In this document: positions 26,657 through 31,959 of the stretch, piece by piece
Layout: each line of letters begins with the position of its first letter
Position numbering within the stretch: position 1 is the first letter of the stretch
NCBI GenBank assembly: GCA_031412235.1
Contig: JANOCP010000075.1
Span: 5,696-69,695, forward strand
From: Polaromonas sp.
Lineage (GTDB): Bacteria > Pseudomonadota > Gammaproteobacteria > Burkholderiales > Burkholderiaceae_C
Length of the DNA stretch: 64,000 nt
Direction of reading: 5' to 3'
Translations under genes and position numbers: made by a program
The notes under the pieces: model-generated
What the model saw: the letters and a program-made list of their open reading frames with translations, nothing else
The model's database searches: none
Told to the model about the DNA's origin: nothing

Positions 26657-28135
26657 ATGTTAGTTCTAGACCACGATCGTGCAGGCGGCTATTGGGGCGC
26701 GGTGTATGTGTTCACTGCCATCAAGGGCTTGCAAGTGGTTATTGACGGCCCGGTAGGCTGCGAGAATCTACCTGTCACGTCGGTACTGCATTACACCGAT
26801 GCATTGCCCCCGCATGAGTTGCCGATTGTGGTCACCGGTTTGGCTGAAGAGCAATTGGGTCGTGAAGGCACGGAAGGTTCCATGCGCCGTGCCCATGCCG
26901 CGCTTGACCCGGACCTACCGTCGGTTGTGGTGACTGGCTCCATAGCCGAAATGATTGGTGGCGGCGTGACGCCGGCGGGCACCAACATCCAGCGGTTTTT
27001 ACCTCGTACGATTGACGAAGACCAGTGGCAGTGCGCCAACCGAGCAATGTTCTGGTTGTGGTCAGAGTACGGCCTCAAGCATGTTCCAGCACGCAAACCT
27101 GCGTCTGAGCGCGCGCCGGGTGAAAAGGCCAGGGTCAACATCATTGGCCCGAGCTACGGTACGTTTAACTGCCCCAGTGACCTGGCGGAAATCCGCCGTT
27201 TGGTGCAAGGCATTGGCGCGGAGATCAATATGGTCTTCCCTCTGGGCAGCCATCTGGCCGACGTGTCGCGCCTGGTTGAGGCCGATGTCAACATTTGCAT
27301 GTACCGCGAGTTTGGCCGCATGTTATGCGAGGCTCTGGAACGGCCATACCTGCAAGCGCCGATTGGCCTGCACAGCACCACGAAGTTTTTACGCAAGTTG
27401 GGCGAGCTGCTTGGTCTGGATCCCGAACCCTTCATTGAGCGCGAAAAGCACACCACCATCAAACCGATTTGGGACTTGTGGCGCTCGGTGACCCAGGACT
27501 TTTTTGGCACCGCCAACTTTGCAGTGGTGGCTAACGAGACTTACACACGCGGCATTCGTCACTTTCTTGAGGACGAAATGGGCTTGCCGTGCAACTTTGC
27601 AATTTCGCGTTGCCCAGGTGCCAAAACCGACAACGCAGAAGTCCGCCGCTTGACCACCACAAAAACACCTTTGGTGATGTACGGCAGCTACAACGAACGC
27701 ATGTATTTGGCCGAATGCGGCGGTGGCGGCATGATGAAAGCGACGTTTATTCCCGCCTCATTCCCACTGCCCATCATTCGCCGCCATACCGGTACGCCTT
27801 TCATGGGCTACGCCGGTGCAACCTACCTCATCCAGGAGTTTTGCAACGCGTTGTTTGATGCGCTGTTTCATATTTTGCCCCTGGGGACTGATCTGGACAA
27901 GATTGATGCGACACCCAGCCGGGTCAATGCCGACAAGCCAATAACGTGGAGCGCCGATGCGCATGCGCTGCTTGAAGACTTGATTGAGGCCGAGCCGGTT
28001 CTGGTTCGTATTTCAGCCGCCAAACAGATGCGGGATCGCGCCGAGCGGGATGCGCGCCAAGCTGGCCGGTCAAGTGTTGAAGTTGATCGCCTTTCAGAAT
28101 TGTTCGGGCATTCAAAAGCGGGGTTGGCTGCATGA
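26657..28135 (+). CDS. bchZ: Chlorophyllide a reductase subunit Z
   Basis: NifK-like. [40 protein letters not shown] is typical of BchZ. Confidence 0.92.
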
Positions 28136-28168
28136 CCTGCAACACGACCGCCTCGAGTTCCCCTACAA

Positions 28169-28190
28169 GTATTCAGGCCTGCCTGAATAC
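28169..28190 (+). promoter_or_regulatory. Perfect 9-bp stem / 4-nt loop hairpin in the bchZ-pufB spacer (candidate puf 5' mRNA structure)
   Basis: GTATTCAGG-CCTG-CCTGAATAC. Confidence 0.45.
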
Positions 28191-28280
28191 AAGTTCGCTG
28201 AAGCAGACCTGCTGCAGCAATTCGTTCCTTGCTCTCGGGCAAGGTGTTGGCCGCAAGGCTTTTTAAGTGAGGTATTGACT

Positions 28281-28424
28281 ATGAATCAAAGTACAACTCC
28301 ATCGGGATTGTCTGACTCAGAGTGCCAGGAATTTCACAAGTACTACATCCAGGGTTACCTGATGTTTGCTGCGGGTGCATTACTTGCGCACAGCTTGACT
28401 TGGATCTGGCGTCCCTGGTTCTAA
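28281..28424 (+). CDS. pufB: Light-harvesting 1 beta polypeptide
   Basis: 47 aa. ..ECQEFHKYYIQGYLMFAAGALLAHSLTWIWRPWF carries the conserved N-terminal His, the BChl-ligating His37 and a WRPWF C-terminus. SD GTGAGG. Confidence 0.93.
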   Translation: MNQSTTPSGLSDSECQEFHKYYIQGYLMFAAGALLAHSLTWIWRPWF

Positions 28425-28455
28425 GAACCCCTAGAACCTACTCACGGAGATAAAT

Positions 28456-28680
28456 ATGGCTTATTTACATGCTCAACAGTCGGACAGTGTTTCGCAAACA
28501 CCTCTCAAGGAGTTTCGATACCTGTATGTTGTTCTCTTCTGCGTCTTTTTGTTGCTTGCAATGATGGGGCAGATGCTGTTCATGGATTGGCGTAACTGGC
28601 TGCCAGGGGCAGAAGGGACGCGTCCGATGTTGGGCAGCGTGAAGTCGGCTGTGTACACCGTGATTTCTCAACTCAACTAA
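28456..28680 (+). CDS. Uncharacterised 74-aa single-TM protein between pufB and pufA (His-less LH1-alpha-like polypeptide candidate)
   Basis: GGAGA SD 6 nt before the ATG. It starts 31 nt after the pufB stop, and its stop lies 10 nt before the pufA ATG. One hydrophobic helix (YLYVVLFCVFLLLAMMGQMLFM) is followed by DWRNWLPGA. I recognise no family with confidence. Confidence 0.7.
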   Translation: MAYLHAQQSDSVSQTPLKEFRYLYVVLFCVFLLLAMMGQMLFMDWRNWLPGAEGTRPMLGSVKSAVYTVISQLN

Positions 28681-28690
28681 AGGAAATATT

Positions 28691-28882
28691 ATGTGGCGTA
28701 TTTGGCGTATTGTTGATCCCCGCAAAGGCATCATCTTCACAGGCTTGATCATTGCCTTTACATGCACGTCGATCCATCTGGTTCAACTTAGCACTGATCG
28801 CTATAACCTCAACACGTGGCACCCAGACACGGTGAAGGCTGCAAAGGCTGCGCAAAACGCAGCGATGCCACCTTCAAAATAA
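28691..28882 (+). CDS. pufA: Light-harvesting 1 alpha polypeptide
   Basis: MWRIWRIVDPRKGIIFTGLIIAFTCTSIHLVQLSTDRYN.. has the canonical alpha N-terminus and His29 ligand. SD AAGGA. Confidence 0.9.
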   Translation: MWRIWRIVDPRKGIIFTGLIIAFTCTSIHLVQLSTDRYNLNTWHPDTVKAAKAAQNAAMPPSK

Positions 28883-28906
28883 CGGCGGCGCTTTTGCTGC
28901 CGATGC

Positions 28907-28946
28907 GGTGAGCGAAGTCAGGCTGATACGGCCTGCTTCGCGCACC
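28907..28946 (+). promoter_or_regulatory. Intercistronic pufA-pufL stem-loop (mRNA stability / processing element candidate)
   Basis: GGTGAGCGAAGTCAGGC-tgatacg-GCCTGCTTCGCGCACC forms ~15 bp with one bulge and one mismatch. Confidence 0.55.
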
Positions 28947-29010
28947 CCTCAAGTACAACTATTTATTTCTGGCAGCGTCTAGCCACGCGTACCGGATGCG
29001 AGGAGCCAAT

Positions 29011-29838
29011 ATGGCCATGCTGAGTTTTGAAAGAAAGTACCGTATTCGCGGCGGCACCCTGATTGGGGGCGACCTGTTCGATTTCTGGATGGGCCCGTTT
29101 TACGTTGGTTTTTTTGGAATAACCACAGCTTTTTTTACTCTTGTTGGCACAGCCATGATTTTATGGGGTGCCGCCATGGGACCGACCTGGAATCCATGGC
29201 AAATCAATATTGCGCCGCCAGACATTTCAAATGGATTGAAGATGGCTCCGATGATGGCCGGTGGCTTGTGGCAAATCATCACCGTTTGTGCGTTGGGCGC
29301 ATTCGTTTCGTGGGCGCTCAGAGAGGTCGAAATTTGTCGCAAACTGGGAATGGGCTTGCATGTCCCGGTTGCATTTGGTTTTGCGATTTTTGCGTACTTC
29401 ACCCTGCAGGTCATCCGCCCGGTGCTGATGGGTTCCTGGGGTCACGCTTTCCCCTACGGCATTTATAGCCACCTGGATTGGGTTAGCAATACGGGTTATC
29501 AATACCTGCACTTTCACTACAACCCGGCGCACATGATTGCGGTGACGTTGTTCTTCGCCACCACCTTGTCACTGTCGCTGCACGGCGCGCTGGTGCTGTC
29601 GGCCACTAACCCTGGCAAAGGCGAAGTTGTTAAAACACCTGAGCATGAAGACACTTTTTTCCGCGACGTGATTGGCTACTCGGTTGGCACGCTTGGCATT
29701 CACCGCTTGGGCCTGTTCCTGGCGCTCGCAGCAGTCTGGTTTTCAGCGCTGTGCATTGTTATCAGCGGGCCGTTCTGGACGCGCGGTTGGCCCGAATGGT
29801 GGGGCTGGTGGCTGAACATGCCAATCTGGGGTCATTAA
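29011..29838 (+). CDS. pufL: Photosynthetic reaction centre L subunit
   Basis: [35 protein letters not shown]. Five TM helices. SD GAGGAG. I prefer ATG 29011 over 28996. Confidence 0.95.
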
Positions 29839-29872: not shown

Positions 29873-30847
29873 ATGGCTGAATATCAAAATCTTTTTACTA
29901 CGGTGCAGCCCATCGGGCCTGCATCTCCGGGTGTCCCTTTGCCGCCAGGCGACTCTGAACGAATCGGCACGCCGTTTTTTCTTCACCTCGCCGGGCGGCT
30001 GGGCAATGCGCAGATCGGCCCGATTTACCTAGGCTGGCTGGGGCTTGCCTCGCTGCTGTTCGGCACACTTGCGTTCAACATCATTGGCTTTAATATGTTG
30101 GCGCAGGTGGACTGGAATCCCATGCAAATGATTCGTCAGCTGTTTTGGTTGGCGCTTGATCCGCCAGCGCCAAAATATGGTTTAAGCATTCCTCCGCTTA
30201 ACGACGGTGGTTGGTGGAATATCGCTGGCTTCATGCTCACGATTTCTCTCCTCTTGTGGTGGGCGCGTATGTACCGCCGCGCGCGACAACTGGGGCTGGG
30301 GACGCACGTGGCATGGGCTTTTGCCGCAGCTATCTGGCTTTATCTGGTCGTTGGGTTCTTCCGCCCTGTGCTGATGGGTAGCTGGGCTGAATCGGTACCC
30401 TTCGGTATCTTTCCGCACCTGGACTGGACGGCGGCCCTGTCACTGCGCTACGGCAACCTCTTCTACAACCCTTTCCATGCATTGTCGATTGTTTTTTTGT
30501 ATGGCTCTGTCTTGCTGTTTGCCATGCACGGCGCAACGATTCTTGCCGTCGGCCGTTATGGTGGTGAGCGCGAGATTGAGCAAATCATTGATCGCGGAAC
30601 GGCGTCCGAGCGCGCAGGCCTATTCTGGCGCTGGACGATGGGCTACAACGCGACGATGGAGTCGATTCACCGCTGGGCGTGGTGGTTTGCCGTACTCTGC
30701 CCGCTGGTAGGTGGCATTGGAATATTACTCACCGGCACGGTGGTAGACAACTGGTACTTGTGGTCTGTCAAACACCATGTCGTACCAAGTTATCCTGCTG
30801 TGTACGTGCCCACCCTTGACCCCGCTTTGCTCGGAGTGAAACCATGA
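29873..30847 (+). CDS. pufM: Photosynthetic reaction centre M subunit
   Basis: [11 protein letters not shown].. N-terminus and conserved ..HGATILAV.. region. SD GAGGTG. Confidence 0.95.
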
Positions 30848-31959
30848 TGACGCACATCGCCCTTAAATTATTGCTTGCAAGCATTGCTGCACTGCTCATC
30901 ACTGGCTGTGAAAGGCCGCCGATTGCGGTGTCGCAAACCGGCTTTCGCGGTACCGGCATGGAGCAGGTTTACAACCCGCGCACGCTGGCTACACAGGCGT
31001 CCCTTAATAAAGCGCCTGCAGCTGCCGATGCGATTGTTGACGTACCTGGTGCACCCAAAGCCGGTGCGATTTACCAAAACGTTAAAGTGTTGGGTGACCT
31101 GAGCGTAGGCGAGTTTGCCCGTACTATGAGCGCCATCACAGAGTGGGTAGCGCCCCAGCAAGGTTGCAACTACTGCCACGTGGCTGGCAACTTTGCTGAC
31201 GACAGCGTGTACACCAAAGTCGTCGCGCGCAAGATGTTACAGATGACACAAAAAATCAACTCGGGCTGGAAGCAGCACGTGGCTGAAACCGGCGTGACCT
31301 GCTACACCTGCCATCGTGGTAACAATATCCCCAAAGAAATCTGGTTTGCACCTGCAGCTCAAAAATTTGCCGGTGGCAATCTGGGTAATGATGCCGGGCA
31401 AAATCGCGCTGCCAGGTCGGTGGGTCTGTCGTCTTTGCCGTATGACCCTTTCACGCCATACTTCCTGGACAGCAAGCCCATTCGCGTTAATGGCAAGGAA
31501 GCGCTGGCTTTGAAGGGTACCGCTGCCAACCGCAGCTCCATCAAGCAAGCTGAACACACTTACGGCACGATGATTCACTGGTCTGAATCGCTGGGCGTGA
31601 ACTGTACCTACTGCCACAACACGCAGTCTTTTTCGAGTTGGGGGGCCAACGCCACACCGCAGCGCGCTACCGCCTGGTACGGCATCCGCATGGCGCGGGA
31701 ACTCAACAATGAGTACATGGTGCCCATCACCAATGTTTTTCCTGCGAACAGACTGGGACCTACCGGCGACGTGGCTAAGGCCAACTGCGCGACCTGCCAC
31801 CAGGGCGCTTACAAACCTCTGTATGGCGCGGCTATGGCCAAACACTACCCTGCGATGTACGCACCGGTCAAAGCGCCTGATGCGCCAGTCGCTGTGCCCT
31901 TAGCTGCTGCTGCGCAAGCTGCACCTGTTGCTGGTAAGGTTGAGGTTTCAGCCAAGTAA
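30844..31959 (+). CDS. pufC: Reaction-centre-bound tetraheme cytochrome c subunit
   Basis: Four CxxCH motifs (CNYCH, CYTCH, CTYCH, CATCH). Lipobox-like LLITGC. ATGA overlap with pufM. Confidence 0.93.

Follow-up and report, generated by a model that had tools for sequence, protein, structure and literature searches.

The closest described counterparts of the gene considered here, a 74-amino-acid (aa) open reading frame (ORF) at 28456..28680 on the forward strand of a 64,000-nucleotide (nt) stretch of Polaromonas sp. DNA (the window), are two ORFs that, like it, lie between the light-harvesting complex 1 (LH1) genes pufB and pufA. ORF2 of Rubrivivax gelatinosus has already been reported at this place with unassigned function; the paper that cites it describes it as lacking the histidine that binds bacteriochlorophyll (BChl) and as unrelated to PufA2 (PMC12817894). 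In Roseateles depolymerans, ORF74 (RS05155) sits between pufB (RS05150) and pufA (RS05160) and is co-transcribed with both on the major 1-kb transcript (PMC10037100). The same three genes show the greatest change upon carbon starvation, where their induction is the strongest, and they are the three most reduced genes in a sigma-factor mutant of this species (PMC10037100). The searchable literature mentions the family only twice, each time as an uncharacterised ORF, and assigns it no function; homology to the LH1 beta polypeptide is not discussed in these two papers. An earlier note on this DNA worked from the premise that pufB and pufA are contiguous in puf operons, which is wrong for the Burkholderiales, where ORF2 (PMC12817894) and ORF74 (PMC10037100) intervene.

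We infer that the window ORF belongs to the ORF2/ORF74 family from its position, its length, its lack of a ligand His, and its orthologues in Rubrivivax-like and Rivibacter genomes. It shares with the two described genes the location between pufB and pufA, the length of 74 aa (as in Roseateles) and, as noted for ORF2, the absence of the BChl-binding His. Orthologues at the same position are found in a "Rubrivivax sp." metagenome-assembled genome (MAG) and in Rivibacter subsaxonicus, both Burkholderiales outside the Polaromonas group. The window copy differs from these in being Polaromonas-like, with approximately 40-60% identity to the Rivibacter and Rubrivivax-like members. The gene is not a new element, having been reported before as the uncharacterised ORF2/ORF74; what is recognised here is its identity as a paralogue of LH1 beta and the selection acting on its motif and tail.

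The ORF starts with ATG at 28456 and ends with TAA at 28678-28680, and its product reads MAYLHAQQSDSVSQTPLKEFRYLYVVLFCVFLLLAMMGQMLFMDWRNWLPGAEGTRPMLGSVKSAVYTVISQLN. It is separated by 31 nt from the pufB stop (28422-28424) upstream and by 10 nt from the pufA ATG (28691) downstream, and the pufA Shine-Dalgarno sequence (AGGAA) directly adjoins its stop. Start, length and gaps are as the earlier note gave them. The GGAGA Shine-Dalgarno sequence of the ORF is also present (28446..28450, forward strand, read directly), at a spacing of 5 nt from the ATG and not the 6 nt previously reported. We saw no terminator-like site inside pufB-ORF-pufA, and the short gaps, together with hairpins that follow pufA, make the unit consistent with the co-transcription of ORF74. 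Reading the product bears out that H5 is its only His and that the string D44-W-R-N-W-L-P-G-A52 is present. The transmembrane helix spans residues 16-47, including R21 and Q39 (codons 28501..28596, forward strand), as delimited by an AlphaFold2 (AF2) helix and by hydropathy (Kyte-Doolittle maximum 2.53 in a 19-residue window), with the register taken from gapless alignments to beta chains. W45-R-N-W-L-P-G-A-E-G54 (codons 28588..28617, forward strand) is a beta-type periplasmic interface motif, and the C-terminal tail S61-N74 (SVKSAVYTVISQLN; codons 28636..28677, forward strand), which is invariant at most positions among 28 homologues, is predicted to form a short periplasmic helix. AF2, run with a 76-sequence alignment, places helix 16-47 with a pLDDT of about 90 over residues 21-40 and a second helix at residues 61-73 with low confidence; the tail helix is modestly amphipathic (hydrophobic moment 0.38, shuffle p 0.06). 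A Foldseek comparison of this model with the PDB returned no match, as is expected of a single helix, for which the result is uninformative.

Sequence comparison places the ORF product with the LH1 beta polypeptide, of which it is a diverged paralogue. BLASTP aligns it to the window PufB without gaps (E 4e-05), and in R. subsaxonicus the match between the ORF and the beta chain of the same genome reaches E 4e-16 at 35% identity, colinear from Met1 to Leu49; there the beta chain ends at ...WTWRPWL and the ORF runs on as ...WSWRPWLPGAEAEKSLVGDVKSAVYTFMSYLT. A family profile built from 28 homologues and searched against all PDB chains had no alpha chain among its matches at E<=10; all 19 were LH beta chains, including Halorhodospira halophila 8Z81_B (9.7e-12), Rhodopila globiformis 7XXF_B (1.9e-11), 9M8M_B, and 6Z5S/6Z5R of Rps. 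palustris. Matches to LH1 beta chains span E 1e-11 to 5e-09 and extend through the C-terminal tail, which aligns with the C-terminal extension found in 7xxf_B and 8z81_B, both of them long beta chains. Profile-profile comparison by hhalign against 78 local pufB sequences gave probabilities of 84-93% (E 7e-06 to 3e-07). In the register common to every alignment, E-F-H19 of pufB becomes E-F-R21 in the ORF and the BChl ligand H37 becomes Q39, so that the position equivalent to the ligand is Gln39 and not Met37, which the earlier note had reached from an alpha-type register. Arg21 and Gln39 thus stand where beta chains have His-18 and His0, their two universally conserved histidines. The DWRNWLPGA string, compared in that note to the alpha motif N-W-L-E-G-A, corresponds instead to beta W-x-W-R-P-W-[LIV]-P-G. 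The ORF thus keeps the cytoplasmic K-E-F helix start, the transmembrane helix, the periplasmic W-R-x-W-L-P-G and a C-terminal extension of approximately 20 residues, all of them beta features. Two Trp residues, +6 and +9 relative to the ligand position, are retained as well; in beta chains the +9 Trp hydrogen-bonds the BChl acetyl group.

Family databases place this protein poorly. The window ORF has no match to Pfam or NCBIfam at E<=10, and ten distant relatives reach at best 19 bits for Pfam LHC and 31 bits for NCBIfam pufB, below the respective thresholds of 23 and 61 bits; no match to an unrelated known family was found. Many family members are labelled "light-harvesting complex 1 beta chain" in IMG, and NCBI names some "light-harvesting protein" and others "hypothetical". 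The automatic "LH1 beta chain" labels are to be treated as misleading.

A protein search returned 138 clusters of homologues at 90% identity, nearly all of exactly 74 aa down to 55% identity. Scanning one genome per species gave 124 ORF loci, of which 80 were kept and inspected; they are assigned to Polaromonas, Rhodoferax, Limnohabitans, Hylemonella, Variovorax, Rubrivivax and unclassified Comamonadaceae/Burkholderiales. The nearest species representative to the window is a "Polaromonas sp." MAG, with about 85% nucleotide identity over 8 kb. Whether the ORF and its position are conserved in related clusters, a question raised earlier, can be answered without exception: it lies between pufB and pufA in 80/80 loci, and bchZ precedes and pufL follows this unit on every contig that is long enough. 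Each of 81 orthologous copies has an ATG start and a Shine-Dalgarno sequence of the GGAG[AG] type, and the median gaps in these copies are 23 nt (pufB-ORF) and 15 nt (ORF-pufA). The frame evolves under purifying selection, with a median ratio of nonsynonymous to synonymous substitution rates (dN/dS, Nei-Gojobori) of 0.235, next to 0.117 for pufB and 0.114 for pufA. Constraint differs greatly between segments: pN/pS is lowest in W45-G54 (0.05), followed by the C-terminal tail (0.15) and the helix (0.41), and is highest in the N-terminal tail (0.61) and the linker (0.78). Both ratios are conservative, because synonymous sites are near saturation. The ORF is a genuine, selectively maintained gene, and its product is a single-pass membrane protein.

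The wider family retains the same pattern. An exhaustive profile search over 1.8 billion representatives yielded 132 clusters at 50% identity, most of them of about 74 aa, His-less and carrying W-R-x-W-[LF]-P-G-A-E ... G-V-K-[AS]-A-V-Y-T-F-M-S-H-L; long beta chains of the canonical type, which have both His, came up only at E 1e-08 to 1e-04. The ligand column is non-His in 447 of the 467 unique family sequences. Gln accounts for 85% of these 447 members, the rest having Ser, Arg, Thr, Ala, Lys, Leu or Met, with Met in three Rubrivivax-like loci (L053, L070, L079); alignment A3, whose 76 sequences were all retrieved as family homologues, has Gln39 throughout. Across the family, the His of E-F-H is mostly replaced by Arg, Tyr or Phe. 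Conservation is concentrated elsewhere: in the 447 members, W45 is found in 446, R46 in 431, W48 in 423, P50 in 434, G51 in 438, A52 in 424 and E53 in 424, and V62, V66 and Y67 are each kept in more than 90%, T68 in about 90% and K63 in about 82%. Judged by these alignments, the family is without a conserved pigment ligand and has a strongly conserved face that is predicted to be periplasmic.

The window PufB has both conserved His (H19, H37) and a WRPWF C-terminus, yet its best PDB relatives are the long beta chains 8z81_B (75 aa) and 9m8m_B (67 aa), which extend past its residue 47. Beyond the WRPWF end, both of these chains and the neighbouring ORF run on with PG(A/P)EG and approximately 20 further residues. 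A short beta with His and a long His-less beta' co-occur in every one of the 80 related loci read, and the canonical pufB of every carrier read ends exactly at WRPW[FL]. The order pufB-ORF-pufA also holds in R. subsaxonicus (L081), in L082 and L083, whose protein occurs on more than 1000 contigs, and in L084, and L086 has crtE-crtF-pufB-ORF-pufA. A related subfamily, A5, aligns to the ORF family at 99.4% hhalign probability, with Arg in the ligand column and a tail of the form EAKAAANT..PFAFMA. On one contig (L085) the A5 protein (326-562) lies between the end of bchZ (123-275) and a long, 74-aa pufB (689-913) that is followed by pufA (925-1143), which is the pufQ position. This arrangement raises the question of how often genes in the pufQ position outside the Rhodobacterales are beta derivatives.

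We tentatively favour, with a confidence approaching but not reaching even, the view that the ORF product is an accessory LH1 polypeptide without a ligand His, one that attaches to LH1 alpha/beta and adds an element on the periplasmic side. The product would be made from the abundant pufB-ORF-pufA stretch of mRNA that also encodes the antenna polypeptides, would insert with its N-terminus inside and its C-terminus outside, and would dock on LH1 alpha/beta through its beta-type helix and its W-R-x-W interface. As a non-His accessory polypeptide of the reaction centre-LH1 (RC-LH1) core, it would provide in trans the conserved periplasmic tail missing from the truncated canonical beta of these bacteria, and it might stabilise or shape the ring or modulate quinone access. 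With a ligand column that varies over the wider family, the side chain at this position is unlikely to be needed for ligating BChl. Since the short pufB ends at WRPW[FL] and the ORF keeps the tail, the simplest history would be a tandem duplication of pufB with complementary loss, that is, subfunctionalisation in which one copy kept the histidines and the other kept the tail. Because both copies are retained, the tail-bearing copy must presumably still meet the antenna, which favours an accessory polypeptide. The extra His-less RC-LH1 subunit suggested in the earlier note survives in part: a conserved, single-helix, LH-like protein without a BChl-ligating His is what the family contains, and an accessory role is plausible, but the protein is not derived from alpha.

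Several observations weigh against an accessory subunit of the mature complex. Many phototrophs have short beta chains without such a partner, and the function of the tail is thus not generally required. The transmembrane helix of the ORF evolves fairly fast, as its pN/pS of 0.41 indicates, and the AF2 model has a mean pLDDT of 66, with low confidence outside the helix. Among two-fold codons, a fraction of 0.52 ends in C in the ORF, 0.82 in pufB and 0.60 in pufA, and CTG makes up 0.25, 0.53 and 0.46 of Leu codons, respectively; this weaker codon bias hints at lower translation than expected of a stoichiometric ring subunit. The A5 gene upstream of a long pufB is unexplained by simple subfunctionalisation. 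In the Halorhodospira structure the tail of the long beta chain is invisible (PMC11802735). Protein-level evidence that the ORF product is made, or is present in RC-LH1, was not found in the searchable literature. The PDB contains no chain of the ORF family; no RC L subunit in it stands out as close to either Burkholderiales query, the best scores (508-525 bits) being a tie with the RCs of unrelated lineages (Allochromatium, Halorhodospira and Rhodopila), and no solved Burkholderiales RC-LH1 that could show or exclude the product was found there or in the literature.

A broader formulation is possible, if on balance doubtful: the ORF2/ORF74 family could represent a third class of RC-LH1 polypeptide, derived from beta, free of a pigment ligand and present at a defined stoichiometry in the Burkholderiales antenna, which arose through tandem duplication and subfunctionalisation of pufB and whose relatives moved to the pufQ position. 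Carriers of such a class would include the abundant freshwater Limnohabitans, Polaromonas and Rhodoferax and, probably, Polynucleobacter-like groups.

The main competitor of the accessory subunit, which we consider rather unlikely, is an assembly factor or chaperone. Here a pigment-free mimic of beta would hold newly made alpha (or beta) until BChl-loaded beta arrives, or would guide ring assembly, and would be absent from the mature complex or sub-stoichiometric in it. The family's lack of a conserved BChl ligand fits such a mimic, as does the finding that no part of the ORF is better conserved than its beta-type interface motif; the codon usage, less optimised than that of pufB or pufA, and the occurrence of the homologous A5 upstream of pufB in the pufQ position point the same way. 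To our knowledge, biochemical descriptions of LH1 from Rvi. gelatinosus list alpha and beta only. An assembly factor needed in catalytic amounts would, however, be unusual in a high-abundance mRNA segment and with a Shine-Dalgarno sequence that is the strongest of the three genes pufB, ORF and pufA. The known LH1 assembly factors LhaA and PuhB/C/E are encoded in the puh operon, and the invariant periplasmic tail has no obvious rationale in a chaperone.

That the ORF encodes a third pigment-binding antenna polypeptide appears improbable. In this case Gln39, or a water molecule held by it, would ligate BChl, and alpha/beta' pairs would add a spectrally distinct pigment. In other antenna proteins both Gln and Asn do serve as (B)Chl ligands, and the invariance of Gln39 in A3, its prevalence among the 447 members and the retention of both Trp residues would agree with such a role. 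Extra antenna bands at 799/813 nm in Limnohabitans planktonicus, unexplained so far, might be taken in its favour as well (PMC12654162). This species also has puc genes inside its photosynthesis gene cluster (PMC12654162); in the three Limnohabitans loci that we examined, only pufB-ORF-pufA is seen around the puf operon. Against pigment binding, Met occupies the ligand column in the three Rubrivivax-like loci and Ser, Arg, Thr, Ala, Lys or Leu does so in other subfamilies, and R. depolymerans, which has ORF74, is listed with an 873 nm antenna band only (PMC12654162).

A PufQ-like regulator or carrier that steers porphyrin flux into BChl synthesis, also considered in the earlier note as an assembly factor of the PufQ type, is very improbable. 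PufQ resembles the ORF product in its size of approximately 74 aa, its single transmembrane helix and its gene's location in the puf operon, and subfamily A5 lies exactly where pufQ would be expected, between bchZ and pufB. Membership of the PufQ family is ruled out: neither the ORF nor ten relatives match Pfam PufQ (PF05398), a domain carried by all five true PufQ proteins that we retrieved as reference, and hhalign against the PufQ alignment gave 9% for the ORF family (A3) and 2% for A5. Moreover, pufQ is upstream of pufB and the ORF downstream of it, only the related A5 being found immediately upstream; the conserved motifs differ, homology is not detectable, the conserved parts of the ORF product are predicted to be periplasmic, and the clear homology to beta accounts for the fold.

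The origin from LH1 alpha that the earlier note preferred can be dismissed as extremely improbable and is ruled out as a paralogy, for apart from a local likeness between its N-W-L-P-G-A and the N-W-L-E-G-A of alpha nothing speaks for it, and there is no BLASTP alignment to the local pufA at E<=100, an hhalign probability of 1% to the pufA alignment, no alpha chain in the PDB search, in which beta chains were matched at 1e-11 to 1e-9, and a gapless alignment to beta over the whole length.

Returning to the accessory polypeptide, its genomic setting in the window is a puf operon with the gene order bchZ, pufB, ORF, pufA, pufL, pufM, pufC, all on the forward strand. bchZ (26657..28135) is a 492-aa ORF upstream of the operon, and where contigs extend far enough it precedes pufB in related loci as well, with full-length tblastn matches of 74-97% identity; the neighbours at this position in L081-L084 match Pfam Oxidored_nitro/PCP_red. 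The flanking genes named in the earlier note are the right ones: pufB (28281..28424) encodes a canonical short LH1 beta of 47 aa (Pfam LHC 2e-09, NCBIfam pufB 1e-17) and pufA (28691..28882) an LH1 alpha of 63 aa (NCBIfam pufA 9e-09, Pfam LHC 1.4e-04). A six-frame search with hidden Markov models detected no extra antenna (puc) genes in the window, pufB, the ORF and pufA being its only LH-like ORFs. The window PufA is without the canonical N-W-L-E-G-A after its ligand His and has D-R-Y-N-[LI]-N-[TSA]-W-H-P-D-T in its place, a sequence kept across Comamonadaceae-type loci; the alpha chains of Rivibacter, L084 and L086 retain F/Y-N-W-L-D-G.

Just 3' of pufA, RNAfold predicts two stable RNA hairpins (28883..28946, forward strand); the region 28880-29000 folds at -52.5 kcal/mol (z -3.5), and 0/200 shuffled sequences fold as well. 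The hairpins likely mark the 3' end, or act as a stabiliser, of an abundant pufB-ORF-pufA mRNA segment. In Rhodobacter, the pufBA segment is the stable, abundant portion of the puf mRNA, and the GC-rich hairpins of the window recall the intercistronic pufBA mRNA stabiliser known from that genus. Their placement also agrees with the 1-kb transcript of Roseateles. Farther downstream, pufL (29011..29838) matches PDB L chains at 1e-151, and pufM (29873..30847) and pufC (30844..31959), both taken from the ORF list, follow in the same order in all related loci. An extra "ORF77" is present between pufM and pufC in R. depolymerans (PMC10037100). It is absent from the window, where the two genes overlap by 4 nt (30844-30847).

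Upstream of pufB, a 44-aa ORF (28132-28266) overlaps the bchZ stop (ATGA) and sits where "ORF1" of Rvi. gelatinosus lies; gene callers likewise call an ORF of 42-44 aa at this position in L081 and L082. As a conserved protein this "ORF1" is ruled out, its frame and sequence shifting between lineages without conservation across the 80 loci. Only a nucleotide motif around GGCCGCAAGGCTTT, just 5' of the pufB Shine-Dalgarno sequence, is conserved, and the region is more likely an element of the 5' untranslated region than part of a protein.

Burkholderiales aerobic anoxygenic phototrophs are among the most abundant freshwater bacteria, and all those sampled carry the ORF in the segment of the puf operon with the highest expression. 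Recognising the product as a beta paralogue turns an "unknown ORF" of about 30 years' standing into a precise and testable hypothesis, namely an extra LH1 component or an assembly factor that mimics beta.

Among known systems, the nearest in sequence to the ORF product are the long LH1 beta chains (PufB, PF00556; 7XXF_B, 8Z81_B), which share homology over the helix, the W-R-P-W-[LI]-P-G motif, the C-terminal extension, the predicted topology and a gene that adjoins pufA. The ORF product differs from them in having Arg21 and Gln39 in place of both His, in falling below the Pfam and NCBIfam thresholds and in coexisting with a canonical pufB. The nearest in proposed role are PufX, protein W, LH1 gamma and gamma-like polypeptides, and protein-U/Y, which are small, consist of one helix (or a hairpin) and have no BChl-ligating His. 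Built into the LH1 ring or attached to it, these proteins influence its closure, its stability or the passage of quinone. The PDB profile search detected no similarity between any of them and the ORF family. The gamma-like polypeptide is only 22 aa long and is inverted in the membrane (PMC9640540). The pufX gene lies downstream of pufM, and the genes for gamma, W and U are outside the puf operon, whereas the ORF is beta-derived and located between pufB and pufA; by analogy, a ring role of the PufX, protein W and gamma type is the one that we propose for its product.

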